Of a stretch of DNA of 64,000 nucleotides, positions 26,318 through 50,747 are shown one piece after another (the stretch's first letter is position 1; each line of letters opens with the position of its first letter). The position numbers and the translations under genes are program-made. The DNA lies in contig NZ_JASGEL010000091.1 of assembly GCF_047606385.1 (NCBI RefSeq), forward strand, positions 1,785 through 65,784, given 5' to 3'. This DNA is from Microbacterium sp. Its GTDB lineage: Bacteria; Actinomycetota; Actinomycetes; Actinomycetales; Microbacteriaceae. The notes under the pieces were generated by a model. It had not been told where the DNA came from, did no database searches, and saw only the letters and a list, made by a program, of their open reading frames with translations.

Positions 26318-26659
26318 TCACGGATGCGTCGGGTCCGCACGCCGCCTCACGTCGACGACACCGGCGAGAGGAGCGGGGACCGCCACGATCCAGCTCCTCC
26401 CGGGGATGGAGGTGCCGGCGCGCGTCACGTACTCGTCGACGGTCAGGACGTACTCGTCCCCGACGCCGGACTCGTCCAGCGTCCCCGGCACGACGACGCC
26501 GTCGCGGAACAGGACGAGGAGGTCCCCCGTGGCGATGTCCTCGGTCCCCGTGCTCAGGCGCGCGCCGGGGTAGAGATGGCTGTGCGGTGTCGACCATGCC
26601 GGCACCTCGTCGTTCCCACCCGCCATGGCACCCACCTTAGAGGGCTCCACGGAGGTCAT
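26318..26659 (-). CDS. Hypothetical protein (113 aa)
   Basis: The ATG at 26659 overlaps the stop of the AKR gene (ATGA). No recognisable motif. Confidence 0.4.
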   Translation of the reverse strand: MTSVEPSKVGAMAGGNDEVPAWSTPHSHLYPGARLSTGTEDIATGDLLVLFRDGVVVPGTLDESGVGDEYVLTVDEYVTRAGTSIPGRSWIVAVPAPLAGVVDVRRRADPTHP

Positions 26660-27600
26660 CTCCCGCTGGCGTCGTCGAGTCGACCGATGTCGTCCGCGGT
26701 CAGCTCCAGCCGGACGGCGTCGAAGATCACGCCGAGCTGATCCGGCACCCGCGCGCTGCTGACCGGCGCCGCCACGGTGGGCTTGGCCAGGAGCCATGCG
26801 AGGGACACCGCCCCCGGAGCCGTGTCGTGCGCGGCGGCGACCTCGTCGAGCGCGGCGAGCACGCGTCGGCCCCGATCGGTGGCGAGATAGGCGTAGCCCG
26901 TCTCCGCCCGCGGTCCGGTCACCGTCACCCCGTCCCGATATTTCCCGGTGAGGAAGCCGCGCGCCATGGCGTTGTACGGCAGCACGGCCAGCCCGTGCTC
27001 GGCGGCCAAGGTCTCATAGGTGTCTTCGAAGCCGCGCTCGACCAGGTTGTAGAGCGTCTGCAGCGCCACCGGCCGGTAGAGGCCTTCCTCGTCGGCCGCG
27101 CGTATCCAGGCGCGGATGCGGTCCGGAGCCATGTTCGAGACGGCGGGGTATCGGATCCTGCCTTCGTCGACCAGGGCGCTGAACGTCTCCGCGACGTCCT
27201 CGATGGGCACCAGCGGGTCATCGTCGTGCACGTAGTAGAGATCGACGTAGTCGGTCTGCAGCCGGCGGAGCGAGCCCTCGAGCGCCGCGCGCACGGTGGC
27301 GGGGGCCAGGCCCTTGTACCGCGGGTGGTTGCCCGCCTTCGTCGCGATGACGAGGTCCTCCCGGTTCCCGTGGGCCCTCAGCCAGGTGCCGATGACCGTC
27401 TCCGACTCGCCGCCGGCGTGCCCGTCGACCCATGCCGAGTAGGAGTCGGCGGTGTCGACGAAGTTGCCGCCGAGACCGACGTAGCGATCGAGGACCGCGT
27501 GGCTGGTGGCTTCGTCGGACGTCCAGCCGAAGGTGTTGCCGCCCAGGTTGACCGGGAAGACGCGGAGATCGCTGGCTCCCAGCGTGGATCGCTCAGCCAC
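26656..27600 (-). CDS. Aldo/keto reductase
   Basis: 314 aa with an AKR pattern (FVDTADSYS, LVIATK, YYVHDDDP, VLPYNAMARGFLTGKY). Confidence 0.9.
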   Translation of the reverse strand: MAERSTLGASDLRVFPVNLGGNTFGWTSDEATSHAVLDRYVGLGGNFVDTADSYSAWVDGHAGGESETVIGTWLRAHGNREDLVIATKAGNHPRYKGLAPATVRAALEGSLRRLQTDYVDLYYVHDDDPLVPIEDVAETFSALVDEGRIRYPAVSNMAPDRIRAWIRAADEEGLYRPVALQTLYNLVERGFEDTYETLAAEHGLAVLPYNAMARGFLTGKYRDGVTVTGPRAETGYAYLATDRGRRVLAALDEVAAAHDTAPGAVSLAWLLAKPTVAAPVSSARVPDQLGVIFDAVRLELTADDIGRLDDASGR

Positions 27601-27638
27601 TGCCGTTCCTCACTTCTCCCTCTCGACGACCCCGGTCG

Positions 27639-28787
27639 TCAGCGCGCGGTGGACGCCAGCGGGCCGGCCGTGTCCCGGTTCGCGAAGCGGTCGGGCCGGA
27701 AGCCCTCGAGGTCCGCCGCCTGACCGCCGAGGTCGTCCGCGATCAGGCTCGCGAGCGCAGGCGCCAACGTCACGGCGTTGTGGGTGACGGCGAAGTAGAT
27801 GCCCGGCGCCTGCGCGGACTCCCCCACCACGGGCAGTCCGCCCTGCGGGATCGCGCGAACCCCGGAACGGGTGCCCTCCACGGGGATGTCCGCCAGTGCC
27901 GGCACGATCGCACGCGCACGGCGCAGGGCCTCCGTGACCAGCGGGTCGTCGATGGCGAGGTGGCGCACCTGCTCCGACTGGGTGAGCTGGTCCGTGCCGA
28001 TCATGAGGCGGCCGCCGCCGTCGGGTCGCAGCGAGACCCCCGGGGCGAGCACGACGCGGTCGAGCGAGACCGGCGCCGGCGCCGTGACCGTCTGGTTCCC
28101 CGGCACGCTCTCGATCGGGATGTCGAGCCCGACACCGCGCGCGAGCGCCTGCGCTCCGGAGCCGGCCGCGAGCACGACGCGGTCGGCGTCGATCCGGACG
28201 CCGTCCTCGAGCAGCACCGCGGGGCGATCGCCGGCGATGAGCCGCGCCACGCGGCCGCGCAGATATCTGGAGTCATGCCGGTTGGCCGCCCGATCGAGCA
28301 GGGCGTTGACGAGGGGGACGACGTAGGCGTGGCCGCCCTGCCGCACCACGAAGACGCTGTCCACGCGCTCGGTGTCGAGACGCAGGTCCGGTTCGATCGC
28401 GCGCAGACCGTCGACCGAGAGCTCGTCGACGGTCACGTCCCATCCGCGCAGCTCGGCGACCGCGCCTCGCAGGTCGGCGACGCGCGTGGCGTCGTCCCGG
28501 TCCGCCCAGTGGATGCTGCCGTGGAACGTCGCCCAGTCGCCGCCGGTCTCGCTCAGCAGCCGCTGATATTCGTCCATCGCCCGGACGTGGAGGTCGAAGA
28601 CGGCCCGGGGTCCCTTGTCGAAGGCGTTGATCCAGCCGAACGCCGCCTTGCTGGTGCCGCCCGCGGGGTACGTCTCGTCCACGAGCGTGACGCGCGCGCC
28701 GCTCTCGGCGAGACGGAGCGCGACGCAGGTGCCCATGACTCCGGCCCCCACGACGACCACATGCGCGCCGGTCAGTTTTCGGGACAT
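27639..28787 (-). CDS. FAD-dependent oxidoreductase (DAO family, D-amino-acid/glycine-oxidase-like)
   Basis: Start at ATG 28787 (RBS GGAG). Dinucleotide fold VVVVGAGVMGTCVALRLAESG. 382 aa. Confidence 0.85.
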   Translation of the reverse strand: MSRKLTGAHVVVVGAGVMGTCVALRLAESGARVTLVDETYPAGGTSKAAFGWINAFDKGPRAVFDLHVRAMDEYQRLLSETGGDWATFHGSIHWADRDDATRVADLRGAVAELRGWDVTVDELSVDGLRAIEPDLRLDTERVDSVFVVRQGGHAYVVPLVNALLDRAANRHDSRYLRGRVARLIAGDRPAVLLEDGVRIDADRVVLAAGSGAQALARGVGLDIPIESVPGNQTVTAPAPVSLDRVVLAPGVSLRPDGGGRLMIGTDQLTQSEQVRHLAIDDPLVTEALRRARAIVPALADIPVEGTRSGVRAIPQGGLPVVGESAQAPGIYFAVTHNAVTLAPALASLIADDLGGQAADLEGFRPDRFANRDTAGPLASTAR

Positions 28788-28852
28788 GGTGAACTCCGCT
28801 TCCGCCGGTGACAAGGGATGGCAGGTTTTAGGCTACCAACTTGTCGGCGAGA

Positions 28853-28874
28853 TTGCATAGTTCTTTGTGTGCAA
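28853..28874. promoter_or_regulatory. Split island motif TTGCA-N12-TGCAA
   Basis: TTGCATAGTTCTTTGTGTGCAA lies 66 nt upstream of the DAO-family gene start. It is preceded by CAACTTGTCGGC (28837-28848), which resembles GAACTTGTCCGC at 42148-42159. Confidence 0.3.
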
Positions 28875-28906
28875 AGCAGTGCAGAGGCCTCATCCGGCGT
28901 CCGGAT

Positions 28907-29581
28907 CTACCCTGCGGCGCGCCCCGGGGGGAACGCCCGCGCGATGATCGCCAGCGAGAACTCGACGTGCTCCCGCGCGCACTCGCCCGCCCGGTCGACG
29001 TCTCCCGCCAGGATCGCGTCCAGGGTCTCCGCGTGCTGCTCCGCGGACAGCTGGATGTCTGCCGGCGAGTAGAGCATCGCGACCCGGCTGTTGAAGTGGT
29101 AGACCTCGTTGTTGGCCAGGAGCTGCTCGATGCGGGGGTTGTTCGCCGCCCTCACGACGAGACGGTGGAACTGACTGTTCGCCTTCATCCGCGCATCGGC
29201 GGTCAGGTCCGTCGCGGTCGCGCTCTCACGGAAGGCCTCGAGCTCCGCCTTCTGCTCATCGGTGCCACGCGTGGCCGCGAGACGGGCGGCGTACGACTCG
29301 AGCGCCGCACGCACCTCGTAGACCTGCGTGATCTCGTCGTACGCATGCTCGTGCACGACCCATCGGCGGCGGCGGGACTCGATGAGGCCGTCGGCGGCCA
29401 GCCGCTGCAGGGACTCCCGCACCGGCGTCCGGCTCACCTGCAGCCGCTCGGCGATGTCGGCCTCGACGAGGGCCTCGTTCGGGCGCAACGCTCCGTTGAG
29501 GATGTTCTCGCGAAGCTGCCGGTAGACGAAGTCCGTCCGCTTCACGGCGCCCACGCGGCTGTCGACCGCATCCGTCGTCAC
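28907..29581 (-). CDS. GntR-family transcriptional regulator (FCD subfamily)
   Basis: 224 aa. HTH (LVEADIAERLQVSRTPVRESLQRLAADGLI) and an FCD domain. GTG start at 29581 with no obvious RBS, so the transcript may be leaderless. Confidence 0.85.
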   Translation of the reverse strand: MTTDAVDSRVGAVKRTDFVYRQLRENILNGALRPNEALVEADIAERLQVSRTPVRESLQRLAADGLIESRRRRWVVHEHAYDEITQVYEVRAALESYAARLAATRGTDEQKAELEAFRESATATDLTADARMKANSQFHRLVVRAANNPRIEQLLANNEVYHFNSRVAMLYSPADIQLSAEQHAETLDAILAGDVDRAGECAREHVEFSLAIIARAFPPGRAAG

Positions 29582-29598
29582 GGTAACACCAACTCATG

Positions 29599-29609
29599 TT
29601 GCATGCTAA
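29599..29609. promoter_or_regulatory. Island motif TTGCATGCTAA upstream of GntR gene
   Basis: It lies 18 nt upstream of the GntR start. It is flanked by the 11-mer CACGGTAACAC (29579-29589), which is also present at 49868-49878. Confidence 0.4.
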
Positions 29610-30591: not shown

Positions 30592-32046
30592 TCATGCGGA
30601 CTGCTCGTTCAACGCGGTGACGACCTCGAGCAGGCTCGACTCGTCGCCGACGTTTCCCGGGAAGATGATGAACGGCACCCCGCGGGCGAGGTCGGCCGAG
30701 TCCGAGGGGATCATGACCGACACCCCGGGCCGCAGCTGGCCGAGCAGCGCCGCGCGCCGGATGCCGAGGCCCCGCACCGCGACGTCATGCGAGGTGATGC
30801 CGCCTTTGGCCACGACCCAGCCGGGGCGAGACGCCAGCACTCCCTGGACGACGGCGACCAGCGCCGTCGACACGGCCTGGGCGATCGCCAGGCTCTCCTC
30901 CGGCCCTGCGCCGTCGACGCGGCGACGGCTGGTGTACACCATGACGTCGGACGAGCGCAGCGCGTCCCGCACCCGCTCGACGGTGCGCCGCACGTGCGCG
31001 TCGCGCGTGCCCGGGTCCAGCAGCGGTGCGACGTCGAACTCGATGTCCGCCGCCCGGCCGGCCTGCCGCACCCGATCCAGCTGCCGGCCGGTCATGGCCA
31101 CATGGGATCCGGCGATGATCAGGCCGGGCCGCCGCGGCCGGCCTGCCGGCCAGATCTCCGCCGCGGTGACCAGGGCTCGCGGCTCGCTGCCGATCAGTGC
31201 GGCGACGAAGGAGGGCCCGGTGCGCATGAGGAAGCGCCGGCCGCCCTCCTGCGCACGGAGGATCCCCAGCATCGCGACCTCGTAGTCCGCGTCCTCGATG
31301 CCGTCGAGGACGACGAACCTGCCGTCGGCGACGTCGGCGAGCATCCGGGCGACCCGGTCCGGACCGCCCTCGCGGATGTCCGTCAGGGTCACGGCCGAGA
31401 TGTCGTCCCGCCGCACCGTTCCGCCGCTCTTCTCGACGATGAAGTCGCGCAGATCGGAGGACGCGTACCCGAAGGTCGCGTCGCGGGCGAACTCGGTGTC
31501 CGCGACCGGGACGTACTCCCCGGCCACCTTCGCCCAGTGCACCGACCCCGCGGTGACCCGCCCTGCGGCGAACAGCGCCGGCGCGACGATCACGCCGTCG
31601 TATCCGCGACCGAGGACCTCACGGCGGGCGTCGTCGAGCGCGCGCACCTCGTCGAGGATGTGCCCGCGCAACGTCGAGTCGCTGCGGCTCACCATGTCGA
31701 GCTCGAAGCCCTCGCGCTCCGATATCCGCAGCAGGTCCCGGGCGACCGTCGCCGTCAGCTCGACGGCGTCCGCGCGCTGCATGCCGCGCGTGTTCGTCAG
31801 GACGAAGGTCGCGCCGTCCGCCCGGCCGAGCGCGGAGGCGTACACGGCGGGGTCGAGGGCGGTCACGATCTCGACGTCGTGCACGGACTGCGATCCGGTG
31901 GGATCGTCGTCCAGCACGACCGTGCGGCCCCCGGACCGGCGACGTGCCCGGCGGATCGTCTCGCGTGCGCCCTCGACGCGCAGCGGCGGCGGGCACCCCT
32001 CCAGGCCCGGGACCGCGCCCGGGACCGCCGGCGTGGCGCTGCTCAT
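30592..32046 (-). CDS. Four-carbon acid-sugar kinase family protein (DUF1537, OtnK/DtnK-like)
   Basis: Internal ATG at 32046 (MSSATPAV...), 484 aa. N-terminal VLDDDPTGSQ and C-terminal KGGITS motifs are typical of DUF1537 kinases. ATGA overlap with the upstream regulator stop. Confidence 0.8.
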   Translation of the reverse strand: MSSATPAVPGAVPGLEGCPPPLRVEGARETIRRARRRSGGRTVVLDDDPTGSQSVHDVEIVTALDPAVYASALGRADGATFVLTNTRGMQRADAVELTATVARDLLRISEREGFELDMVSRSDSTLRGHILDEVRALDDARREVLGRGYDGVIVAPALFAAGRVTAGSVHWAKVAGEYVPVADTEFARDATFGYASSDLRDFIVEKSGGTVRRDDISAVTLTDIREGGPDRVARMLADVADGRFVVLDGIEDADYEVAMLGILRAQEGGRRFLMRTGPSFVAALIGSEPRALVTAAEIWPAGRPRRPGLIIAGSHVAMTGRQLDRVRQAGRAADIEFDVAPLLDPGTRDAHVRRTVERVRDALRSSDVMVYTSRRRVDGAGPEESLAIAQAVSTALVAVVQGVLASRPGWVVAKGGITSHDVAVRGLGIRRAALLGQLRPGVSVMIPSDSADLARGVPFIIFPGNVGDESSLLEVVTALNEQSA

Positions 32047-33812
32047 GCGAGGCCGGAGCGGCGGCGCGATCCGTCGACGGTGGGAAGCAGGTCCAGCGCC
32101 ATGGTCACCCTGGTCAGGTCGCGATAGGAGTGCAGGTCCAGTCCGGTGAGCTCGGCGATGCGCTCCAGGCGCTTGTGCAGCGTGTTGGCGTGGATGTTGA
32201 GGTCCTCCGACGTGGCGTTGATGTGGCCGTCGTGGTCGACGAAGGAGCGGAGCGTGCGGACCATGTCGGACTTGCGGCGCTCGTCGTAGTCGGCCACCGC
32301 CCCGAGGACGGACGTCACGAAGGCCTGCATCTGATCCGCGGACATCGAGCCGGTCACCTCGACGAACGATCCGAAGTCGGAGTAGAAGGCCAGCGGCGAC
32401 GCACCGGTGGCCAACGCGGAGGCGAGGCGCGCCTCGCGGGCTCCGCGCACGACCTGGCCGAGCCCGTAGATCGAGGAGCTGACCGCGAGCTGCTCGGCGT
32501 CCGGGTGGGCGTTGAGCACCGCCGTCGCGGACTCCACCGGGACCGACCCGCCGCGCAGCAGGAGCAGCAGGTCCTGGCCGTCCGCGACCGCGCTCAGCAC
32601 GTTCCAGCCGTATGCCGCGAAGCCGCGGGCACGCCGGCTCATCCTCACGGCCGACTCGGGGGTGGGGGTGCGCATGACGGCGACCGTCATCACGGACTCG
32701 TCGGCGACGCCGAGCAGCCCGGCGAACTCCTTGATCTGCGCGCGGTTGAGCGTGCCGTGCGCCAGTGCGAGCAGCATGGTCGGAAGCGCGAGCGTGGTCA
32801 GCGCGGAATCGGTGCGCGTGGCCTGCAGGTGACCGCCGATGACCAGGGCCGCCTGACGGGCGACCACGTGGTCGAACCGGCTCTCGTCGTCGAGCACGGG
32901 GGCGATCAGCACGTACCCCAGATGGGAGCCGCTGCCCGCGCCGTCGATCGGCACGACCGTGCATCGCCCGTCGCCGGCGGCATCCCCCCGACCGTCGGCC
33001 AGCGCCACCGACGTGTCCCGCAGCGCCGGCACCGAGGCCGGGTCGGCGTGGAGGGCCAGCTCGTTCCCCTCGGCGTCGATCACGAGCACCGACCGCTTCA
33101 GCACGCCGGAGGCGATCCGCGCGACCTGGGTCGGCGTCGTCGGCGACCCCTCGGACAGCAGCTGGATCATGTTCGACTGGGCGACGTACACGTTCTGCAG
33201 CTGGGAGTTGTCGGCCTGCAGCCGGCCTTGCACGTCCTCCAGTGCGCGGCGGAGCTCCTCGCCCTTCTCCGCCTGGACGGCCGTCGCCATGCCGATCGCG
33301 GCGAGACGGCACGTCAGCGACACCAGCTCCTCGTAGTCGCGCAGCTCGTCGTGCGGCGTGTGCCACGAGCAGGTCATCACGCCCACGACCGACGCGTCGC
33401 GGGTGATCGGGCTGTAGTAGACCGACTTCACGCCGGCCTTGCTGAGCAGCTTGTACGTCAGCGACCTGCGGTCGTACTCGTCGATGTCGAGGAAGATCGG
33501 CTTCCCGGTGGTGAACACCTCGACGGACGGGTCGAGTCTGCCGCGCACCTTGTTCGACAGGGTCGCGTCGCCGAGCTCCAGCTCCTCGGTGTGGGGATGC
33601 GGGCCGGCCTGCCCGGCCGGGACCAGCCGCGTGTCCCGGAGGACACGGATGTTGACCTCGTAGCAGTCCAGGTACTCCTTGACGTAGACGCAGATCTGCT
33701 CGAGCGTCGCGGTCAGCGAGCGGAAGCCGCTGACGTCGAGCGCCGACTCCGCGACGTGGAACAGGCCTTGGACCATCTCGAGACTCGACGATGACGTCGT
33801 CTTCACAGGCAT
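32043..33812 (-). CDS. PucR/CdaR-family transcriptional regulator with N-terminal GAF-like domain
   Basis: Start at ATG 33812 (RBS GGAGAG). The C-terminal PucR HTH is NATSEDLNIHANTLHKRLERIAELTG. The N-terminal ~170 aa are GAF-like. Confidence 0.75.
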   Translation of the reverse strand: MPVKTTSSSSLEMVQGLFHVAESALDVSGFRSLTATLEQICVYVKEYLDCYEVNIRVLRDTRLVPAGQAGPHPHTEELELGDATLSNKVRGRLDPSVEVFTTGKPIFLDIDEYDRRSLTYKLLSKAGVKSVYYSPITRDASVVGVMTCSWHTPHDELRDYEELVSLTCRLAAIGMATAVQAEKGEELRRALEDVQGRLQADNSQLQNVYVAQSNMIQLLSEGSPTTPTQVARIASGVLKRSVLVIDAEGNELALHADPASVPALRDTSVALADGRGDAAGDGRCTVVPIDGAGSGSHLGYVLIAPVLDDESRFDHVVARQAALVIGGHLQATRTDSALTTLALPTMLLALAHGTLNRAQIKEFAGLLGVADESVMTVAVMRTPTPESAVRMSRRARGFAAYGWNVLSAVADGQDLLLLLRGGSVPVESATAVLNAHPDAEQLAVSSSIYGLGQVVRGAREARLASALATGASPLAFYSDFGSFVEVTGSMSADQMQAFVTSVLGAVADYDERRKSDMVRTLRSFVDHDGHINATSEDLNIHANTLHKRLERIAELTGLDLHSYRDLTRVTMALDLLPTVDGSRRRSGLA

Positions 33813-33835
33813 GTGCGCTCTCCGCATCTTCCGAA

Positions 33836-34351
33836 TCAGTACTGGGGGACCTGGAGCGGGTACATCGCCCGCTGGTAGTACGCGAGCGGGACCTCGTCGA
33901 ACTCGTCCTGACCCGCCGCCACGACCTCGGCGAAGAACAGGCCGTGCGTGCCGCGCCGCTCCACGTCGACCACCCGGCAGTCCATCCACGCCGCCGCGCC
34001 CTGAATGATGGGGGAACCCGTCAGCCGTGGGCTGTGGTCGACGCGTTCGAACCGCTGCTGGTGCGACATCCCGGGGGTGGCGAACAGCTCGGCGATCCAG
34101 CGGTGCGAGCCGGCGAGGATGTTCGCCGCGTAGACGCCGCTGTCGAGCACCTCCTGGTACCCGCGGTTCTTCATGTTGAGGCAGATCAGCACCGTGGCCG
34201 GCGCGAACGTGATCGAGGTGAACGAGTTGATGGTCATGCCCACCGGACCCTCCGCGCCCTTCGTGGTGGCGACCACGACGCCCGTCACGAGTCGGGACAT
34301 GGCCGCCCTGAGGTCGCCCGGCGGGACCTGCGACGACGCCGGCTGAGACAT
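33836..34351 (-). CDS. Flavin reductase (HpaC/NADH:FMN oxidoreductase family)
   Basis: 171 aa with a pattern typical of flavin reductase-like domains (LRAAMSRLVTGVVVATT...GMTINSFTSI). Its start overlaps the monooxygenase stop by 1 nt. Confidence 0.85.
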   Translation of the reverse strand: MSQPASSQVPPGDLRAAMSRLVTGVVVATTKGAEGPVGMTINSFTSITFAPATVLICLNMKNRGYQEVLDSGVYAANILAGSHRWIAELFATPGMSHQQRFERVDHSPRLTGSPIIQGAAAWMDCRVVDVERRGTHGLFFAEVVAAGQDEFDEVPLAYYQRAMYPLQVPQY

Positions 34352-35586: not shown

Positions 35587-35675
35587 TACGCGTCACCAGG
35601 GATGATGAACGACTTCGTATGCAACGCTACACACCAAGGCCGGGACGCGAAACAGTGGAAACACCACTTCTCGTC

Positions 35676-40285: not shown

Positions 40286-40286
40286 C

Positions 40287-41165: not shown

Positions 41166-41178
41166 GACCGCGCCTCGC

Positions 41179-42099
41179 TCATCCCTTGACCCCGATCCGG
41201 CGGTCGGCGAGCCGGAACACGACGTCGCCGACGATGTTGACGAGGATGACCATCACCGCGATGACGAAGACACTCGCCTGCACCACCGGCAGGTCCCGGT
41301 TCGACACGGAGTTGACCAGGAGCAGGCCCATGCCCGGCCAGGCGAAGACGGTCTCGGTGACGATGACCCCGCCGAGCAGGCTCGTGAACAGCAGCAGGAT
41401 GATGCTGACGACCGGGACGAAGGCGTTGCGCAGTGCGTGCCCGTACAGGATGACGGCCTCGGGCAGTCCCTTCCCGCGTGCCGTGCGGATGTAGTCCTTG
41501 TTCAGCTCTTCGATGACGCTGGAACGGACGAGCATCATGATCTCCGCGGCCAGGGCGATCGCGATCGACACCGAGGGCAGGATCAGGCTCTGCCAGCTGC
41601 CCGACCCGGAGACGGGGACCAGCCGCAGGGTGACCGCGAACAGGAGGATGAGCATGATCCCCAGCCAGAACGTCGGCATCGCCTTGCCGAAGACCGCGAC
41701 CGAGGAGAGGACCGTGTCGATCTTCTTGCCGCGGTTGACCGCGAGATACACGCCCGAGGGCACGGACAGGACGATCGCGACGACGATTCCCCACACCGCG
41801 AGCGTGAGCGTGACCGGCAGGCGATCGAGGACGAGTCCCAGCGCCGGCTGGTTGTAGCGGTACGAGACACCGAAATCGCCCTGGATCGCGTGCCAGATGT
41901 AGTCGAGGTACTGCACGTACAGCGGCCGGTCCAGGCCGAGGGAGTGCCGCAGGGCCTCGACCTGCTCGGGCGTCGCATGATCGCCCAGCAGGCTCGCGAC
42001 CGGGTCGCCGGCGACGTAAACCAGCAGGAAGACGAGCGTCACGATGATGAACAGCACCGGGACGGCCTCGAGGACCCGCCGGATCACGTATCTCAGCAT
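41179..42099 (-). CDS. ABC transporter permease (DppB-like)
   Basis: 306 aa with the N-terminus MLRYVIRRVLEAVPVLF typical of DppB/OppB. Confidence 0.9.
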   Translation of the reverse strand: MLRYVIRRVLEAVPVLFIIVTLVFLLVYVAGDPVASLLGDHATPEQVEALRHSLGLDRPLYVQYLDYIWHAIQGDFGVSYRYNQPALGLVLDRLPVTLTLAVWGIVVAIVLSVPSGVYLAVNRGKKIDTVLSSVAVFGKAMPTFWLGIMLILLFAVTLRLVPVSGSGSWQSLILPSVSIAIALAAEIMMLVRSSVIEELNKDYIRTARGKGLPEAVILYGHALRNAFVPVVSIILLLFTSLLGGVIVTETVFAWPGMGLLLVNSVSNRDLPVVQASVFVIAVMVILVNIVGDVVFRLADRRIGVKG

Positions 42100-42139
42100 C
42101 TGATGGTCACCCGCTCTCTCATCGCTTCAGCGTACCAGC

Positions 42140-42159
42140 TTGCATGCGAACTTGTCCGC
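42140..42159. promoter_or_regulatory. Conserved 20-nt operator-like module TTGCATGCGAACTTGTCCGC
   Basis: 18/20 identical to 49892-49911. It lies 41 nt upstream of the dppB-like start. On the coding (minus) strand it is followed after 5 nt by the -10-like TACGCT. It abuts the AT palindrome AAAAATTTTT (42160-42169). Confidence 0.45.
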
Positions 42160-42200: not shown

Positions 42201-43316
42201 TCAGCCGAATCGAGCGGGGGCGAGCGCTGTGTCGTCCAGCATCTGATGGCGCCCGAGCATGCGCGCCACGAGGATCTCCGCCGCCGGCAGCGCGTGCATG
42301 AAGCCGTGATGACCGAGTCCGGTGGCCACGTACAGCCCGTCCGTGCCGGGGACGGCGCCGACGATGCCGATGTCGTCCGGGGATGCCGCGCGGTGACCCC
42401 ATTCCGACACGAACACCTGGTCCGCGCGCAGCCCGGGCAGCCGGTGGGTCAACAGGCCGACGGTCCGCTCGGGCTCGGACGCGTCGAAGAACACCGCATC
42501 CTCGCGGTCGGCTCCGCCGATGATCAGCCCCCGCCGGCTCGACACGAAGTACCCGCGCGTGCCCATGTCGAAGACGAGCGGGAGGCGGACGGGCAGGCCG
42601 TGCTGCGGAGCGGTCAGGAAGATCTGCCCCCGCTGGTTCCGGATCGGCGGCACCCACCCGGCCGGCGACAGGGCCGGGATGCTGCCCATGCCGGCGGCGA
42701 CCACGACGGCGTCCGCTGCGATGCCGCCCTCGGCGGCCGTGACTCCCCGCGCGCGTTCGTGGCGGACGTCGACGGCGACGTCGCGACCCTCCACGATGTC
42801 GACGCCATGGCGCTCGCACAGGTCGAGGAGCGACTGCAGGACGGCGGCGGGCGATGCCGTGCCGTCGTGGGCGGTGTACCAGCCGCCGCGGACCCCGTCC
42901 ATGCGCATGCCCGGCACGACCGACTCCAGATCGGCACCCGTCAGCCGCTCGATGGAGCCGCCACCGCCGCGCACGACCTCGGCGATCGACGCCCGCAGCT
43001 CGTCGTGCGCCGGCTCGGTGCTCAGGTAGAGATAGCCGTTCGCCTGGAAGTCGCTTCGCACGTCGTCGCGATCCCGCCACTCGGCCATGATCTGCAGCAT
43101 CCGCAGCGTGAGGGCGACGTTCACCGGCTGCGCGAACTGCGAGCGGATCCCGCCGCCGCCCAGCAGCGATACACCGCCGCCCGGCTGATACCGATCGACG
43201 ACGCAGACCCGCTCGACGCCGGACTCGCGCAGCTGCACCGCCGTGGCCAGACCCATGACGCCGCCGCCGACGATCACGACGTCGTAGCCGCCTCGCGTGT
43301 CCGCGCGCTCAGTCAT
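42201..43316 (-). CDS. FAD-dependent oxidoreductase (DAO family, sarcosine-oxidase-beta-like)
   Basis: 371 aa with dinucleotide fold DVVIVGGGVMGLATAVQL. It overlaps the hyuB stop by 8 nt. Confidence 0.85.
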   Translation of the reverse strand: MTERADTRGGYDVVIVGGGVMGLATAVQLRESGVERVCVVDRYQPGGGVSLLGGGGIRSQFAQPVNVALTLRMLQIMAEWRDRDDVRSDFQANGYLYLSTEPAHDELRASIAEVVRGGGGSIERLTGADLESVVPGMRMDGVRGGWYTAHDGTASPAAVLQSLLDLCERHGVDIVEGRDVAVDVRHERARGVTAAEGGIAADAVVVAAGMGSIPALSPAGWVPPIRNQRGQIFLTAPQHGLPVRLPLVFDMGTRGYFVSSRRGLIIGGADREDAVFFDASEPERTVGLLTHRLPGLRADQVFVSEWGHRAASPDDIGIVGAVPGTDGLYVATGLGHHGFMHALPAAEILVARMLGRHQMLDDTALAPARFG

Positions 43317-47378: not shown

Positions 47379-47966
47379 TCAGACCGCCCAGGCGGCTGCC
47401 GCCTCGGGCTGGCAGCGAGGATCGCCGCCTTCGCCGCCGCGGTAGTCCGCGACCTGGCCGTCGATGACGTAGCCGGTGTCGGTGGTCATGCTCCGACACC
47501 ACTCCGGCGAGACGCACGAGCGGGCTCCGTACGATTCGACGGCGGCCATGATGACGGGCAGGCCGGCTCGCACCTCGGCCGCGCTCCGCTCGGGGTCGGC
47601 GAGCCGGACGCCGGCGGTCTCGGCCATCGCGGTGATGTCCTCGAGCTGCCTCGCCGCCCAGCCGTGGGGATCGGCGTTCAGCGCGTCGTCGAAGTTCCCG
47701 TACTCCGGCTCCATCCCCGGGAACCGGGGGTGGAAGTGCGCCGACCTGCCGTTGCCCTTCGGCAGTCCGACGGTGTCGAAGAGGTCCGCGCGCCAGAAGA
47801 TCCCGTCGATGAGGATCGGCTGGGCGACCGAGCGGCTCCCGCGCATCACGATCGGCGTGACGGTGCGCAGGTCGATGCGCGCCCCGTGCTCTTCATGACC
47901 GGTGCCGACCTCGTACCAGTGCCGGACCATGACGACGACCTCGGAGAAGTGGAACAGCGTTTGCAT
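47379..47966 (-). CDS. Hypothetical protein (195 aa), no family recognised
   Basis: I prefer ATG 47966 (MQTLFHF..., RBS GGAGG 9 nt upstream) over 47981. It ends 36 nt before hyuA. Real-protein composition, with His/Cys-containing segments (HWYEVGTGHEEH, HFHPRFPG, C-x5-C). Confidence 0.5.
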   Translation of the reverse strand: MQTLFHFSEVVVMVRHWYEVGTGHEEHGARIDLRTVTPIVMRGSRSVAQPILIDGIFWRADLFDTVGLPKGNGRSAHFHPRFPGMEPEYGNFDDALNADPHGWAARQLEDITAMAETAGVRLADPERSAAEVRAGLPVIMAAVESYGARSCVSPEWCRSMTTDTGYVIDGQVADYRGGEGGDPRCQPEAAAAWAV

Positions 47967-48041: not shown

Positions 48042-49817
48042 TCAATAGACGGGTCGGACGACCTCGCCGGACTCGGGGACGTCCCATGCCGAGACGGGCG
48101 GGAGCTGGTCGATGACGTGAGGCACCCGGATGCTCAGGAATGTCGGCCCCTGCCGGTCGCGCGCCGCCCGGAGCTCGATCTCCAGCTCGTCGAGGGTGCG
48201 GACGTCCGCTCCCGGCACGCCGCATGCCTCCGCCACCTTCACGGCGTCGATCGCGCCGGGGGTCACCCCGAAATAGCGCTGGCCCATGTACAGGTGCTGG
48301 AGCATCTTTATCCAACCGTAGCTCGCGTTGTCGAACTCGATGAACAGCACCGGCAGCTGATACCGGGCCGCGGTCTCCAGCTCGCCGCAGGCCATCGCGA
48401 AACTGCCGTCGGCGGTGAAGCAGACCACGCGGCCTCCGGTGCCGATGGCGGCCCCCATGGCGGCCGGGATCGCATATCCCATCGCGCCGTGTCCTCGCGG
48501 CAGCACCACCGTGCGGCCCGGCTTGTCGAGCTCCCAGAACGAGGCGAGGTACGGCGTCGGCGTTCCCGGGTCGCCCACGGCGACGACCTCGGAGCCGAAC
48601 ACCGCCTGCACGCGCGTGACGACGTCGGCCGGCGAGAGCTTGCCGGCCTCGGTCGAGGTCGGGACGCCGGCCTCCTTCCAGGCGCGCCTCGCGGCGGCCA
48701 CCTCCGCGACGACCGCGTCGCGGTCCACGGCGAGGTCTACGCCCTCGAGCGCGTCGAGGAGCTGGCGGAGCACGGTGCGGCTGTCTCCGACGACCGCCAG
48801 GGAGCCCGGATAGTTCCTCCCGGCGCGGGTGGCGTCGATGTCGATGTGGATCACGGTCACGTCCGGTTCCCGGCGCGGCGCCCGCCAGCTGTCGGTGTTG
48901 GTCGCGTTCGCGCGCGTTCCGACGAAGATCACGGTGTCCGCGGATGCGACGTAGTCGAACGCGTAGCGGCGGGCGCCGTTGTTGCCGACCACGCCGAGCG
49001 AGTAGGGATCGTCGTCGGCGATCACGCCTTTGCCGTGGATGCTCGTGGCCACCGGGGCGCCGACACGCTCGGCGAGGGCCCGCAGCTCGGCGGCGGCGGA
49101 CGAGGTGTGCACGCCGGAGCCGGCGACGATCGCGGGTCGCTTCGCGCGGGCGATCGCCGCGACCGCGGCCTGCACGACATCGGTGGCCGCGGCGGGCCGC
49201 TCGGCGGGAAGGTCTTCGACCGAGGGAATGGCGGCGTCGGTCAGCTCGTCGCGGGCGATGGTGTGGTCGAGCACGTCCTCGGGGAAGATCAGCACCACCG
49301 GGGCGGGGCGACCCGTCGTCGCGGCGCGCAGCGCGTCGGCGACCGCCGCGGGGATGTCCGCCGGCCGTTCCACCACCCGCGAGAACTTGGTCACGGCGCT
49401 GAAGAGCTTCACCTGGTCGATCTCGGTGAGAGCCCCGGAGCCGCGGCTGGCCGTATGGATGTCCGAGGTGATGAGCAGGACGGGAATCCCCGCCGCGTAC
49501 GACTCTCCCATCGAGCCGACCGCATAGCTGCACCCGCCACCGCTGGAGACCTCCGCGACGCCCACGCGACCCGTCGTGCGCGAATAGGCGTCGGCCATCG
49601 CGAGCGCGTGACGCTCGTCTCGGGTGAGCACGTGGACGATGTCGTCGCGGTGGTCGTTCAACGCGTCGTAGAACACGACCCCGGTGTCGCCGGGAAGGCC
49701 GAAGATCTCCTTGACCCCCGCCGAGACCAGCGTCTCCACGAGCAGATCGGCGCCTCGCACCTGTCCGTCGCTCTCGGTCGTGCGCCGCTCTGCCGGTGCC
49801 GTCACTGTCACATCCAC
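48042..49817 (-). CDS. Thiamine-pyrophosphate-dependent enzyme (acetolactate-synthase-like)
   Basis: 591 aa with an N-terminal Pyr domain (GVKEIFGLPGD) and a C-terminal PP domain with TADGSFAM...N. GTG start with RBS GAGGAG. Confidence 0.9.
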   Translation of the reverse strand: MDVTVTAPAERRTTESDGQVRGADLLVETLVSAGVKEIFGLPGDTGVVFYDALNDHRDDIVHVLTRDERHALAMADAYSRTTGRVGVAEVSSGGGCSYAVGSMGESYAAGIPVLLITSDIHTASRGSGALTEIDQVKLFSAVTKFSRVVERPADIPAAVADALRAATTGRPAPVVLIFPEDVLDHTIARDELTDAAIPSVEDLPAERPAAATDVVQAAVAAIARAKRPAIVAGSGVHTSSAAAELRALAERVGAPVATSIHGKGVIADDDPYSLGVVGNNGARRYAFDYVASADTVIFVGTRANATNTDSWRAPRREPDVTVIHIDIDATRAGRNYPGSLAVVGDSRTVLRQLLDALEGVDLAVDRDAVVAEVAAARRAWKEAGVPTSTEAGKLSPADVVTRVQAVFGSEVVAVGDPGTPTPYLASFWELDKPGRTVVLPRGHGAMGYAIPAAMGAAIGTGGRVVCFTADGSFAMACGELETAARYQLPVLFIEFDNASYGWIKMLQHLYMGQRYFGVTPGAIDAVKVAEACGVPGADVRTLDELEIELRAARDRQGPTFLSIRVPHVIDQLPPVSAWDVPESGEVVRPVY

Positions 49818-49891
49818 GTCTCAGCGTCTCCTCGTCGGCCGGTGGTGCGTCCGATCGACGCGCTGTCCACGGTAACACATTGTAGACCACT

Positions 49892-49911
49892 TTGCATGCG
49901 AAGTTGTGCGC
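49892..49911. promoter_or_regulatory. Conserved 20-nt operator-like module TTGCATGCGAAGTTGTGCGC
   Basis: 18/20 identical to 42140-42159. On the minus strand it is followed after 7 nt by the -10-like TACAAT (49884-49879) and then by GTGTTACCGTG (49878-49868). It lies 75 nt upstream of the TPP-enzyme start. Confidence 0.45.
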
Positions 49912-49946
49912 GGATCTGTGCCGCCGAGCATGGCGCGGCCCTGCGC

Positions 49947-50747
49947 TCAGACCGGCCCGTCGCCCGGCACGGTCCGGGCCGGCGGAGCGCCCCAGTACGC
50001 ACGCACGAGATTGGCGTAGAGCGCGACGTAGTCCTCTTTCGAGGGCACGTCCACGAGCGTCTCCGGGCAGAGATAGCCGCTGTAGGAGTCCGCGCGCAGG
50101 AGTGCCATGAGCTCGTCGTAGGGGAAGTCGCTCGCGAGATCGTGCAGGTCGATGTGACGCAGATAGGGCCTGATCCGCTGATAGGTGGAGGCGATGCTGC
50201 CTCCCACGAGGTCGCGGTGGTCGCTGTTGTAGTGCAGTCCCAGATTCGGCCGATCGGCCAGGCGCAGGATCTCGAGGGCGAAGTGCCAATTGTTGATCTC
50301 GCCGTGCATCTCCAGCAGCAGCTCGATGCCCACCGAGGCCGCCTCGTCGGCGAGACGCTGGAGGCTCTGCGCGATGCCGGCCAGCGTGATGTCGCGGTCG
50401 ACGCCCGGATGCAGGTCGTTCCCGCAGACCCGCACCATGGGCGATGCGATGTCGTGGGCCAGCTCGATGTGCCGGATGGCGTTGTCCTCGGCCTTCGTGC
50501 GCTGCGCCGGGTCGGGACTGTCGAACCGGGCGCCCGAGCGCACGCACGCCGCCTCGAGGTAGGCGTCCTGGATCTTGTCACGGATCGCACGGCGCTCCTG
50601 TGCGCTGCGCTCGATCTCCACGCCGTGGGCGTTTCCGTACTCGCATCGGAAGTCGAGGCCGGCGAACCCCCGCCGGCGCGCGATGTCGATCATCTCGTCG
50701 AGAGTCCAGCTCTTGCCCAGGCCGTAGGACAGCAGTGAGAGCCTCAT
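49947..50747 (-). CDS. Sugar-phosphate isomerase/epimerase (xylose-isomerase-like TIM barrel)
   Basis: Start at ATG 50747 (RBS GAAGGAG), 266 aa, AP_endonuc_2-type pattern. Confidence 0.85.
   Translation of the reverse strand: MRLSLLSYGLGKSWTLDEMIDIARRRGFAGLDFRCEYGNAHGVEIERSAQERRAIRDKIQDAYLEAACVRSGARFDSPDPAQRTKAEDNAIRHIELAHDIASPMVRVCGNDLHPGVDRDITLAGIAQSLQRLADEAASVGIELLLEMHGEINNWHFALEILRLADRPNLGLHYNSDHRDLVGGSIASTYQRIRPYLRHIDLHDLASDFPYDELMALLRADSYSGYLCPETLVDVPSKEDYVALYANLVRAYWGAPPARTVPGDGPV

Follow-up and report, generated by a model that had tools for sequence, protein, structure and literature searches.

The minus-strand gene array in the 64-kb window (the whole stretch of DNA analysed) is best explained as a mosaic catabolic regulon, neither one operon nor a single known pathway, a reading to which we give slightly better than even chances. 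It would be an actinomycete's patchwork nutrient-degradation regulon built from recognisable modules that have one putative repressor-binding palindrome in common, and its sequence points to at least seven separate transcription units with three internal regulators.

Extent and organisation of the array

Gene detection by third-codon-position GC calling, with families assigned by Pfam and NCBIfam, recovered all 21 genes listed in the first-pass annotation on the minus strand, with the stated families and predicted domains, and agreed on the start of the TIM-barrel gene at 50747 (RBS GAAGGAG). The co-directional array had been said to end there, but the minus-strand run continues through the genes for a large NAD-GDH (50904-54137), P5C reductase (proC, 54142-55002) and PutA (55040-58486) and comprises 24 genes up to 58486, beyond which a LysR gene (58607-59500, plus strand) is divergently oriented. 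This putA-proC-gdh unit (50904..58486, minus strand, gaps of 37 and 4 nt) has the LysR gene as its own regulator and no operator according to the PWM, and is therefore placed outside the regulon as an unrelated co-directional neighbour. To the left, where 26318 had been given as the boundary, the regulon appears to reach across a plus-strand gene to 22104 and would include a second FCD-type GntR regulator (GntR2), a cytosine-deaminase-like amidohydrolase and a 2OG-Fe(II) oxygenase.

Minus-strand genes make up 46 of the 55 genes in the window, and since strand shuffling of so minus-biased a window still yields a run of 24 genes in 3.3% of cases (P=0.03), co-directionality by itself is weak evidence. 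The many overlapping or short junctions described earlier were confirmed, but seven junctions are 88–156 nt long; six of these contain a promoter/operator-like element while the seventh, between the SBP and MFS genes, has a strong terminator-like hairpin instead. This 88-nt gap (MFE -48.3 kcal/mol) is the most stable per nucleotide among the short gaps, and its GC-rich hairpin with a 14-bp outer stem (36958..36999, minus strand), located right after the SBP stop codon, resembles a terminator at the end of the ABC unit.

What was taken as a single 21-gene array thus probably consists of the TIM barrel alone (unit 1), TPP-orphan-HyuA-HyuB-DAO1 (unit 2), the Opp-type ABC importer (unit 3), the ACAD-fold monooxygenase with flavin reductase, PucR, DUF1537 kinase and LtnD-like dehydrogenase (unit 4), GntR1 (unit 5), DAO2-AKR-small ORF (unit 6) and, further left, the divergent pair GntR2-amidohydrolase / 2OG oxygenase (unit 7). 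As noted before, no integrase or transposase was seen in Pfam scans, and a tRNA search was equally negative; the reported lack of an obvious GC shift holds apart from a mild dip to 0.67–0.69 at 34–42 kb, compared with ~0.71–0.72 elsewhere. No enzyme of the array reached an NCBIfam equivalog cut-off, which makes every catalytic step a family-level guess.

The shared palindrome

When analysing the promoter gaps the palindrome TTnGCATGCnAA was found in seven of them, directly upstream of a -10-like hexamer or overlapping one. Its core GCATGCAA has seven occurrences at five sites, all non-coding and all at 23.9–50.8 kb, compared with 0.11 expected from a Markov model of non-coding DNA and a maximum of two in 1000 simulations. 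The nine best PWM matches of the window also fall within 23.9–50.8 kb (eight in promoter gaps, the ninth intergenic after start correction), with none in the remaining 37 kb, and TTNGCATGCNAA gave no match in 165 other, unrelated loci. In terms of density, sites with at most one mismatch number 7 per 2.73 Mb in unrelated loci, 5 per 0.13 Mb in TPP-GntR loci and 5–6 in the 27-kb interval of the window.

Two copies are situated in the 198-nt GntR2/2OG-oxygenase divergent region, the perfect palindrome ATTGCATGCAAT (23967..23978, PWM 21.0), within which the GntR2 start ATG falls, and ATTACATGCAAT (24090..24101, PWM 16.9), which is intergenic because the oxygenase start was corrected to 24167. Further copies are found 17 nt upstream of GntR1 (TTAGCATGCAAC, minus strand, 29598..29609, PWM 17.9), 28 nt upstream of the ACAD-fold gene (TTCGTATGCAAC, 35614..35625, PWM 16.6), 40 nt upstream of the first ABC permease (TTCGCATGCAAG, minus strand, 42139..42150, PWM 17.8), followed by a -10-like TACGCT, and 74 nt upstream of the TPP gene (TTCGCATGCAAA, minus strand, 49891..49902, PWM 21.5, the best), followed by a -10-like TACAAT. 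The 156-nt GDH-TIM gap contains a pair (50810..50836), TTTGCATGCAAG at 50825-50836 (PWM 19.7) and a second copy at 50810-50821 (PWM 11.6), and a weaker operator-like site, TTTGTGTGCAAA (28864..28875, PWM 14.9, eighth best in the window), lies 50 nt upstream of DAO2. A consensus promoter scan, which is uninformative at 72% GC, gave no sigma-70-type sites.

The proposed repressor, GntR1 (28907..29581, minus strand; GntR and FCD domains), lies 18.5 kb from the ALS-like TPP enzyme (48042..49817, minus strand; three TPP domains) that heads unit 2. TPP homologues in actinobacteria are 53–59% identical, and in all seven other actinobacterial loci examined an FCD/GntR regulator directly follows the TPP homologue; TPP-GntR is a conserved actinobacterial pair. 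The TPP-adjacent regulators (L169-L174 and L178) are 49–55% identical to GntR1, their orthologue. HyuAB is clustered with the pair in three of the seven loci and a DAO gene immediately precedes TPP in three of seven. A close match to the palindrome is present at the operon promoter of three of these loci, as the exact 11-mer TTCGCATGCAA upstream of TPP in Ornithinimicrobium (L170), identical to the copy in the window, and as one-mismatch versions in L171 and L174, with looser related elements in two more (L169 and L178). From this co-occurrence we infer that the palindrome is a putative operator of GntR1, and the copy 17 nt upstream of the GntR1 gene suggests autoregulation; the binder could instead be GntR2 or PucR. 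In this genome TPP and GntR1 appear to have been separated by inserted or rearranged genes, and further modules appear to have been recruited under the same operator.

That strand bias has merely brought together unrelated adjacent operons with separate substrates, the motif being a generic promoter element or a coincidence, is consistent with the high share of minus-strand genes, the three regulators within the array, the LysR regulator that the co-directional putA-proC-gdh clearly has of its own, and the independent recurrence of HyuAB+transporter, LtnD+OtnK cassettes and TPP-GntR. We consider it unlikely, as the palindrome is restricted to the 27-kb interval, is missing from the rest of the window and from the unrelated loci, and in other genera is retained alongside the regulator's orthologue. 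The putative common operator gives independent cis-regulatory evidence for co-regulation of most modules.

Modules and their relatives

HyuA (45297-47342) and HyuB (43309-45300), both minus-strand with a 4-nt overlap, have full-length Hydantoinase_A/B domains and are predicted to form a two-subunit ATP-dependent hydantoinase/lactamase; caprolactamase alpha/beta models gave 449/218 bits against cut-offs of 1000, and the best PDB match of HyuA is N-methylhydantoinase (392 bits). Enzymes of this type are ATP-dependent lactam/hydantoin hydrolases (PMC8453981, PMC6061476). Overlapping hyuB by 8 nt is DAO1 (42201..43316, minus strand; DAO 189 bits), an FAD amine oxidase resembling sarcosine-oxidase-beta and proline-dehydrogenase-beta (best PDB match 1y56_B, 83.5 bits). 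The five-gene Opp/Dpp-type ABC importer (37006..42099, minus strand, identified by Pfam) consists of two permeases (41179-42099 and 40287-41165), two ATPases (39461-40285 and 38553-39464) and an SBP_bac_5 protein (37006-38559), with junctions of 13, 1, -4 and -7 nt. Published analogues of HyuAB with an amine oxidase and an importer are nmp, caprolactamase and the Ti-plasmid aga region; for N-methylpyrrolidone metabolism the nmpA/B lactamase, nmpC amino-acid oxidase and an aldehyde dehydrogenase are listed together (PMC6987047).

Comparison was made with 85 loci, those of the nearest relatives of HyuB (33–59% identity). HyuA and HyuB are always paired in 63 of these, the remaining loci being truncated contigs, and the HyuAB+transporter module recurs independently at other loci. 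HyuB is 45–48% identical to the HyuBs of TPP-GntR clusters and 59% to that of a TPP-less cassette; it is thus not especially close to the former, which counts against the mosaic regulon. Neither the TIM barrel, the orphan, the MFS, the ACAD-fold protein nor the flavin reductase was found within 10 kb in any of the 85 loci.

An opine-like substrate is rather improbable. It would be an N-(polyhydroxyalkyl or carboxyalkyl) amino acid in lactam form, comparable to the agropinic or mannopinic acid whose use is encoded on Ti plasmids. After lactam opening by HyuAB, an FAD oxidase would split the secondary amine, releasing an amino acid along with a fragment derived from the sugar, the latter to be processed by kinase, dehydrogenase, TIM barrel and AKR. 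Such a scheme would account for amine-oxidation and acid-sugar hallmarks together, and for the SBP_bac_5 importer, and the mannityl-opine region of NC_002377, the octopine-type Ti plasmid, has genes for an FAD oxidoreductase and for HyuA-type and HyuB-type proteins, with an Opp-type ABC transporter encoded divergently from them. The resemblance is however only one of analogy (HyuA 37%, HyuB 31%, SBP 25%, and the Ti oxidoreductase does not match DAO1), and the TPP enzyme, ACAD-fold monooxygenase, deaminase-like amidohydrolase and 2OG oxygenase are without a role in it. The paper on this mannityl-opine region is cited in PMC1713258.

The amidohydrolase (405 aa, 22104..23321, minus strand; Amidohydro_3/1) is ATGA-coupled downstream of GntR2 (216 aa, 23318..23968, minus strand; GntR and FCD, 32% identical to GntR1 by BLASTP), with the RBS GAGGAGG preceding its ATG at 23321. 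With the NCBIfam cytosine deaminase model PRK07572 the amidohydrolase stays under the cut-off of 438 bits, at 196 bits. It seems to belong to the regulon though outside the coordinates first assigned to the array, and the oxygenase (24167..25153, plus strand; DIOX_N and 2OG-FeII_Oxy, RBS GAAGGA) would likewise be under the common operator. Creatinine is degraded by a deaminase, N-methylhydantoinase, a carbamoyl-amino-acid amidase and a sarcosine oxidase step. A pathway of this creatinine/N-methylhydantoin type, with a sarcosine-oxidase-like DAO after hydantoin formation, ATP-dependent hydrolysis and the amidase, would suit a cytosine/creatinine-deaminase-like amidohydrolase under the operator, the best solved relative of HyuA and those of DAO1, deposited as sarcosine oxidase or glycine oxidase. 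It is nevertheless highly improbable: no isochorismatase-type or M20-type carbamoyl-amino-acid amidase was found among the genes scanned, scores all lie far under equivalog cut-offs, the amidohydrolase is present in 0/85 HyuB loci, and TPP enzyme, acid-sugar genes and flavin monooxygenase are left unexplained.

The TPP enzyme, proposed to be a 2-oxoacid decarboxylase or carboligase, is under all NCBIfam cut-offs with BbmA and ALS as best PDB matches (~240 bits). The ACAD-fold two-component flavin monooxygenase (34351..35586, minus strand; Pfam, DszC/SfnB-like) scored 154 bits for SfnB against a cut-off of 431 and 119 bits for its best PDB match, DszC, and its plasmid relatives are all at most 31% identical. 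Its partner would be the NAD(P)H-flavin reductase (33836..34351, minus strand; Flavin_Reduct 126 bits, HsaB/RutF-like, under cut-offs). No operator was found upstream of the EntS-like MFS_3 transporter (35676..36917, minus strand; Pfam, NCBIfam) with the PWM, so its membership of the regulon is uncertain. Some ACAD-fold flavin enzymes are amine N-oxygenases. A biosynthetic cluster, in which TPP acyloin synthase, ACAD-fold N-oxygenase with reductase, 2OG oxygenase and MFS exporter yield a small secreted metabolite, could draw on this, on the solved TPP relatives BbmA and CsmA, which we take to be acyloin-forming, and on EntS-like proteins being an exporter type. This is the least probable reading, since a binding-protein-dependent importer lies at the cluster centre, FCD/GntR repressors and HyuAB+transporter cassettes typically go with catabolism, the MFS is the sole unit without operator, and no NRPS, PKS or other enzyme that would form a scaffold was found.

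The DUF1537 kinase (30592..32046, minus strand; SBD_N and NBD_C, 2-OtnK-like subfamily), assigned by the domain logic of PMC12540250, is 40–42% identical to kinases of LtnD/F_bP_aldolase cassettes (L166-L168). [quoted passage not shown] Together they probably correspond to LtnD and 2-OtnK of the three-step threonate/erythronate route that has been published. The decarboxylase of that route, 2-OtnC, is absent from the module, and the module shows no evident chemical connection to a lactam; both points also count against the mosaic regulon.

The 195-aa orphan (47379..47966, minus strand) belongs to a rare actinobacterial family (40 clusters among 5.8e9 proteins) with conserved RHW.E, EHGxR, AHFHP and two Cys. 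Its AF2 model has pLDDT 92.6, and Foldseek, PDB and Pfam searches gave neither a match nor an assignable fold or function. The gene context of its relatives varies across 80 loci, with HyuAB or TPP near none of them; the orphan is thus not regarded as a partner of these genes, for which the first-pass annotation had suggested a neighbourhood analysis.

Also on the minus strand are a GAF and PucR-HTH regulator (32043..33827; HTH_30, GAF), DAO2 (27639..28814; FAD amine/amino-acid oxidase, DAO 166 bits, weakly ThiO-like with 112 bits against a cut-off of 251), the AKR (26656..27600; Aldo_ket_red 206 bits, under all NCBIfam cut-offs) and the AP_endonuc_2 TIM barrel (49947..50747; xylose-isomerase-like, Pfam 70 bits), a monocistronic unit with just weak IolO/QuiC matches and no close PDB relative. 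The terminal 113-aa ORF (26318..26659), accepted as credible, overlaps the AKR gene by ATGA (GGGAG...ATGA junction), has GC3 0.89 in its non-overlapping part and no Pfam match.

Proposed route

The pathway had been called unassignable. No other locus was found with the full combination and none of the papers searched describes a HyuAB+TPP+GntR cluster, but the term was overstated for the modules, namely the LtnD/2-OtnK pair, HyuAB with its analogues, and the TPP-GntR pair with DAO or HyuAB. The array can indeed be divided into modules that are conserved independently of one another, but a substrate is known for just one of these, and the putative shared operator points towards their co-expression.

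For the mosaic regulon the best reading is that a lactam- or hydantoin-like compound would be imported, ring opened with ATP, its amine oxidised and a 2-oxoacid decarboxylated. The ABC system may import an N-heterocyclic compound of lactam, hydantoin or cyclic-amidine type, or an N-substituted amino acid, which the amidohydrolase and oxygenases could deaminate or hydroxylate before ATP-driven ring opening by HyuAB. The amine or amino acid set free would be oxidised by DAO1 or DAO2, giving an imine or a 2-oxo acid for decarboxylation by the TPP enzyme, and AKR, LtnD-like dehydrogenase, OtnK-like kinase and the TIM-barrel enzyme may handle aldehyde or hydroxy-acid fragments.

Gene content and extent of the minus-strand run

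With a GC content of 70–75% throughout the window, plain ORF lists are full of spurious frames, and gene calling was done on third-codon-position GC (GC3). This calling together with Pfam searches recovered, as real genes on the minus strand with their predicted domains, every gene that the first-pass annotation had listed from 50747 down to 26318. These encode an AP_endonuc_2 TIM barrel (49947–50747), an acetolactate synthase-like TPP enzyme with three domains (48042–49817), a 195-aa orphan protein without any Pfam match (47379–47966), HyuA and HyuB (43309–47342), a DAO flavoprotein (DAO1, 42201–43316), an Opp-type ABC importer consisting of two permeases, two ATPases and an SBP_bac_5 binding protein (SBP), an MFS_3 transporter, an ACAD-fold protein, a flavin reductase, a GAF+PucR regulator, a DUF1537 kinase (SBD_N+NBD_C), a HIBADH-type dehydrogenase, a GntR/FCD regulator (GntR1, 28907–29581), a second DAO (DAO2, 27639–28814) and an AKR. 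The small terminal ORF, 26318–26659 on the minus strand, is best read as a gene of 113 aa which is coupled to the AKR gene by an ATGA overlap.

The start of the TIM barrel gene at 50747, with the ribosome binding site GAAGGAG, is correct but the run does not end there; genes on the same strand go on upstream to 58486, 24 genes in total, with a large NAD-glutamate dehydrogenase, a P5C reductase and PutA before a divergent LysR gene begins. The array had hence been largely rightly described but mis-bounded. The window has 55 genes, 46 of them on the minus strand, and a 24-gene run appears in 3.3% of strand shuffles, so that co-directionality is weak evidence only.

The glutamate dehydrogenase gene (50904–54137) starts 4 nt past the stop codon of the P5C reductase gene and encodes only 1077 aa, with a partial ACT3 domain at its start and no N-terminal ACT1, ACT2, HM1 or HM2 detected; this may be its natural length or the result of truncation at the N-terminus. 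In the putA-proC(-gdh) unit (54142–58486), which is divergent from the LysR gene (58607–59500), the position of a P5C reductase beside the proline-catabolic PutA is unusual.

At the other end the run is terminated by a plus-strand coding remnant (25950–26291) with no Pfam match and good GC3 in its 3' part only, overlapping the longest ORF of a glyoxalase/3-dmu-9_3-mt-like gene (25473–25877, minus strand). This is probably what had been called a decayed hydrolase gene. Further to the left, and immediately beside the regulon, a minus-strand gene at 20652–21515 gives a weak match to REase_MTES_1575 (DUF559-related; 30.6 bits against a cut-off of 38.2), and at 16253–18734 the genes of a HupE/UreJ_2 membrane protein and a DUF3500 protein adjoin, followed by a 355-aa gene without Pfam match.

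That the array could be a mobile genomic island was considered and rejected, as no integrase or transposase Pfam domains were present among the window genes scanned, no tRNA was found in the window, and the only shift in composition is a mild dip in GC, from about 0.715 to 0.67–0.69 over 34–42 kb, where the MFS and ABC-transporter genes are located. The dip could reflect either membrane-protein composition or a more recent acquisition. A spike in AT skew (0.18) was seen at 40–42 kb, and a scan against Rfam gave no riboswitch or other RNA family.

Transcription units, predicted operator and candidate regulator

When analysing the junctions of the array two classes appeared, overlaps or gaps of at most 38 nt on the one hand and seven gaps of 88–156 nt on the other. 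Six of the larger gaps hold a putative operator, with or without a -10-like hexamer, and one holds a hairpin, which contradicts the proposal of a single polycistronic 21-gene operon. The hairpin, in the gap after the SBP gene, has a GC stem of 14 bp, is the most stable per nucleotide among the short gaps and looks like a terminator. Scans for consensus promoters and terminators gave nothing useful and are uninformative at 72% GC.

The larger gaps share the near-palindrome TTnGCATGCnAA, in several cases followed after 2–5 nt by a -10-like hexamer TAnnnT. Its exact core, GCATGCAA, occurs seven times at five sites, all non-coding and all within 23968–50836, while 0.11 occurrences are expected when the 9.9 kb of non-coding DNA in the window is modelled as a first-order Markov chain, and the maximum in 1000 simulations was 2. 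A symmetric weight matrix placed its nine best matches in the 64-kb window exclusively within 23.9–50.8 kb; upstream of the genes for the TPP enzyme (49891), the TIM barrel (50825 and 50810), the first permease (42139), the ACAD-fold protein (35614) and GntR1 (29598, 17 nt from the start), a weaker one upstream of DAO2 (28864), and a pair at 23967 and 24090, between divergent genes in a 198-nt stretch that lies beyond the array as first delimited. After the best sites the scores step down from 11.6 to at most 9.0. In the same scan of the whole window no site was found upstream of the MFS gene or of putA-proC-gdh, and the latter unit carries no copy of the palindrome. The operator pattern had no match in 165 unrelated loci, and compared with 2.7 Mb of such loci the density of near-matches is ~75-fold in this array and ~15-fold in the loci with TPP–GntR pairs described below.

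The divergent region at 23.97–24.17 kb divides a minus-strand unit from the plus-strand gene of a 2OG-Fe(II) oxygenase, with its corrected start at 24167. The minus-strand unit consists of a second FCD/GntR regulator (GntR2, 23318–23968; GntR 52 and FCD 66 bits), 32% identical to GntR1 and with a palindrome copy overlapping its start, and an ATGA-coupled gene of a cytosine-deaminase-like amidohydrolase (22104–23321; 196 bits against a cut-off of 438). With predicted operators in this region the regulon would span both strands and pass the left boundary drawn in the first-pass annotation.

GntR1 consists of a GntR winged helix (64 bits) and an FCD domain (91 bits). To address which regulator the operator belongs to, the TPP enzyme, which has many actinobacterial homologues at 53–59% identity, was followed into seven contexts, from Streptosporangium, Ornithinimicrobium, Streptomyces, Kineosporia, Actinosynnema, a Streptosporangiales MAG and one metagenomic contig. 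Every one of them has an FCD/GntR gene directly 3' of the TPP gene, and these regulators are 49–55% identical to GntR1 and only about 26–33% to GntR2. The TPP promoter in Ornithinimicrobium cavernae (L170) contains the identical 11-mer TTCGCATGCAA, then TTGCATGC; in L174 TTCGTATGCAA TG CTGCATGC is found ahead of DAO-TPP-GntR, and in L171 the palindrome TTCGCATGCGA is situated where an ABC...DAO-TPP-GntR operon begins. The operon promoters of these three loci thus hold the 11-mer exactly or with one mismatch, and L169 and L178 hold looser related elements. As the motif accompanies GntR1-type regulators and a PucR gene is absent from all seven loci, the predicted operator is assigned, by co-occurrence, to the GntR1 type.

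The partners of the TPP–GntR pair vary. In three of the seven loci (L169, L172 and L173; Streptosporangium violaceochromogenes, Kineosporia mesophila and Actinosynnema mirum) it is clustered with an ABC importer, HyuA, HyuB, a luciferase-like monooxygenase and an M20 peptidase or Amidohydro_1 protein, and in three (L171, L174 and L178) a DAO gene is located directly 5' of the TPP gene together with a transporter, two of these loci also having a racemase-like gene. The last one, L170, combines the pair with MmgE/PrpD and TctABC. Here two exact copies of the 11-mer (8464 and 9927) flank the MmgE/PrpD gene, one of them upstream of the TPP gene and the other ahead of the neighbouring transporter genes, and the GntR1-type regulator seems to control a quite different cassette. 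In L172 (1–12374) and L173 (1–12392) a common co-directional cluster of ten genes was observed, encoding an SBP_bac_8 ABC importer, HyuA, HyuB, a luciferase-like monooxygenase, an M20 peptidase, the TPP enzyme and an FCD-GntR regulator.

In the window 18.5 kb separate the gene of the TPP enzyme (start 49817) from that of GntR1 (start 29581), a stretch that houses the orphan, HyuAB, DAO1, the importer, the MFS transporter, the monooxygenase pair, PucR, the kinase and the dehydrogenase. This separation suggests that an ancestral TPP–GntR pair was split by insertion or rearrangement.

Comparison with known catabolic systems

The TPP–GntR clusters are among the systems closest to the array and are apparently uncharacterised; no paper was found on clusters of HyuAB with TPP and GntR or of HyuAB with a luciferase-like monooxygenase, including the L172/L173 type. 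Besides the TPP enzyme (54–59% identity) and GntR1 themselves, they share with the window HyuA and HyuB (41–48% identity), an ABC importer and a flavin monooxygenase in three of the seven loci, a DAO adjoining TPP in another three and related palindromes at several operon promoters. They differ in that TPP and GntR are adjacent, the importers are of SBP_bac_8 or NMT1 type instead of SBP_bac_5, the monooxygenase is luciferase-like instead of ACAD-fold, and an M20 or Amidohydro_1 hydrolase takes the place of DAO1. None of them contains the orphan, the TIM barrel, DUF1537/LtnD, PucR, AKR or the 2OG oxygenase.

HyuA (Hydantoinase_A with N and C domains; 276, 175 and 63 bits) and HyuB (Hydantoinase_B, 458 bits) are both full-length and their genes overlap by 4 nt. 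When run against equivalog models they scored 449 and 218 bits for caprolactamase, below the cut-offs of 1000, and at most 260 bits for acetophenone carboxylase (cut-offs 1250–1500); no enzyme reached an NCBIfam equivalog cut-off. Among solved structures HyuA is closest to N-methylhydantoinase (392 bits) and to a chain deposited as 5-oxoprolinase (308 bits), the TPP enzyme to BbmA and acetolactate synthases (~240 bits), the ACAD-fold protein to DszC, and DAO1 to 1y56_B, deposited as 'sarcosine oxidase', which we take to be the beta subunit of archaeal L-proline dehydrogenase. No close solved relatives were found for the TIM barrel and the DUF1537 kinase. Window proteins looked up by their exact sequence had no record. 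The best matches, in Ornithinimicrobium, Streptosporangium, Kineosporia, Streptomyces and Pseudonocardia, are only 47–59% identical, and the plasmid relatives of the ACAD-fold monooxygenase, at most 31% identical, are too distant for their contexts to inform.

Apart from the protein itself, the best HyuB match has 59% identity and no other exceeds 53%. A survey of 85 loci with the closest HyuB relatives, searched for the window proteins, revealed HyuA adjoining HyuB in 63 (the remaining contigs being truncated), ABC ATPases of several transporter types in 38–39, Opp-type permeases and SBP in 10–13, an FCD/GntR regulator in eight, a TPP enzyme in five (25–38% identity) and DAO1 in two. The TIM barrel, orphan, MFS transporter, ACAD-fold protein and flavin reductase, whose genes in the window are all at most 10 kb away from hyuB, were found in none of them. 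The amidohydrolase, the TIM barrel and the 2OG oxygenase are rejected as HyuAB partners elsewhere, being absent from all 85 loci.

ATP-dependent ring opening is established for the caprolactamase CapAB (PMC8453981, PMC6061476), and in N-methylpyrrolidone degradation the oxidase nmpC is listed as acting after nmpA/B (PMC6987047); such ATP-dependent lactamases also attract attention for the biocatalysis of lactams and nylon monomers (PMC11033972). The window resembles these systems in its two-subunit HyuA/HyuB, the overlapping genes, the FAD amine/amino-acid oxidase directly 3' and the logic of converting a lactam via an amino acid into an aldehyde or oxo-acid, and differs in the addition of the TPP enzyme and the orphan to the same operon and in the low caprolactamase scores. 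The creatinine/N-methylhydantoin pathway was also weighed; deaminase-like, HyuAB and DAO proteins are all present, but all score below cut-offs, and no carbamoyl-amino-acid amidase domain for the N-carbamoylsarcosine amidase step was detected among the window genes scanned. This pathway is unlikely.

A similar gene architecture is found in the mannityl-opine region of the octopine Ti plasmid NC_002377 (77.3–87.9 kb), where an Opp-type ABC importer adjoins genes of an FAD oxidoreductase and of HyuA- and HyuB-type proteins. Identity is only 25–44% overall (HyuA 37%, HyuB 31%, importer 25–44%), the oxidoreductase lacks homology to DAO1, the genes are plasmid-borne in a proteobacterial host, and both a TPP enzyme and a GntR1-type regulator are missing. 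Orthology with the genes of aga-type opine-lactam catabolism was therefore rejected, the architecture alone being alike. No literature linking agropinic acid to a hydantoinase was found, so that the comparison rests on the annotation of NC_002377 and on a study from 1999 (PMID 9987134), in which Lyi, Jafri and Winans reportedly described the region for mannityl-opine catabolism on Ti plasmids of the octopine type.

Relatives of the DUF1537 kinase were found on eight plasmids only. The three closest (40–42% identity; Rhodococcus, Deinococcus and Arthrobacter, L166–L168) are located in cassettes with an NAD(P) oxidoreductase, 48–53% identical to the HIBADH-type dehydrogenase of the window in two of the three, an F_bP_aldolase-type gene and an FCD regulator, and the two annotated cassettes also carry an Asp/Glu-racemase-like gene and a sugar ABC transporter. 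These cassettes represent the three-step L-threonate/D-erythronate route, which, going back to Guo et al. 2024 and described in PMC12540250 and PMC12994016, consists of LtnD, 2-OtnK and 2-OtnC, the last with an F_bP_aldolase domain. The window likewise has a DUF1537 kinase with a HIBADH-type dehydrogenase (NAD_binding_2+NAD_binding_11) directly 3', although here the pair sits behind the flavin monooxygenase and the PucR regulator in transcription. The dehydrogenase scores 280 bits for NF043037 (L-threonate dehydrogenase; cut-off 350) and the kinase 70 bits for D-threonate kinase (450) and 39 for 3-oxo-tetronate kinase (350), with no model named for 2-OtnK among its NCBIfam matches. A tblastn search with the L166 and L167 aldolases, which detects the 2-OtnC gene in L166–L168, gave nothing in the window at E ≤ 1e-4. 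At most a part of this route is present in the window. The four-step threonate pathway (LtnD, OtnI, 3-OtnK, 3-OtnC) was rejected too; an Aldolase_II domain (3-OtnC) was not present in any window gene scanned, and the TIM barrel, 18 kb from the kinase and in a separate transcription unit, has only weak matches to IolO/QuiC.

The family of the orphan is rare, with 40 clusters among 5.8e9 proteins and 181 loci in GTDB species-representative genomes; all of the 80 loci retained are from Actinomycetota. Invariant in the family are the motifs RHW.E, EHGxR and AHFHP and two Cys. In none of the 80 loci were HyuAB, TPP or TIM found near it, nor was there any conserved neighbour, and the ideas of a HyuAB subunit analogous to acetone carboxylase gamma and of a pathway marker were rejected; with a context so variable its function is probably independent of HyuAB. 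Its AlphaFold model is confident (pLDDT 92.6) but gave no match to solved structures (best E=0.66, TM<0.2), and neither a Pfam family nor a PDB profile was matched.

A probable patchwork regulon and its putative route

The array had been read as one unassignable pathway of 21 genes, which is partly right. The combination is indeed unmatched and most modules are linked by the predicted operator, but what is present is probably a GntR-controlled catabolic regulon, a patchwork of recognisable modules. Catabolic clusters with no known substrate are widespread among actinomycetes and the array itself is thus not exceptional.

From the gene families a possible order of events can be proposed. GntR1 would keep the units repressed until a pathway compound occupies its FCD domain, and the Opp-type importer would take up an N-heterocyclic or N-substituted amino-acid compound, which may be modified by the deaminase-like amidohydrolase, the 2OG oxygenase and the two-component flavin monooxygenase. 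HyuAB would then use ATP to open a lactam- or hydantoin-type ring (compare caprolactamase, PMC8453981, PMC6061476), the resulting amine or amino acid would be oxidised by DAO1 or DAO2 (compare nmpC, PMC6987047) and the 2-oxo acid decarboxylated by the TPP enzyme; the recurrent DAO–TPP adjacency supports that these two act in consecutive steps. Carbon fragments would go to the AKR, the LtnD-like and OtnK-like proteins and the TIM barrel. A more specific version, to which we give little credence, is a so far undescribed route in which lactam and acid-sugar catabolism are joined under one GntR operator; a natural N-heterocycle with a hydroxy-acid side chain would pass through HyuAB and amine oxidation, the TPP enzyme would stand in for the absent decarboxylase and act on a phosphorylated 2-oxo-acid from the LtnD-like/OtnK-like pair, and the orphan would serve the HyuAB/TPP operon as a new accessory or metal-binding protein.

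A defined operator and a candidate repressor tie seven units together and give a testable handle on the regulon, which would also be a concrete example of how a regulon grows when genes are inserted between the regulator and the gene it ancestrally controlled. The TPP/GntR pair is conserved in all seven other actinobacterial loci, and no paper was found that addresses it. If the substrate were found, functions would follow for a large uncharacterised branch of acetolactate synthase-like TPP enzymes and for a HyuAB subgroup, and possibly for the rare orphan family, which is without structural relatives.
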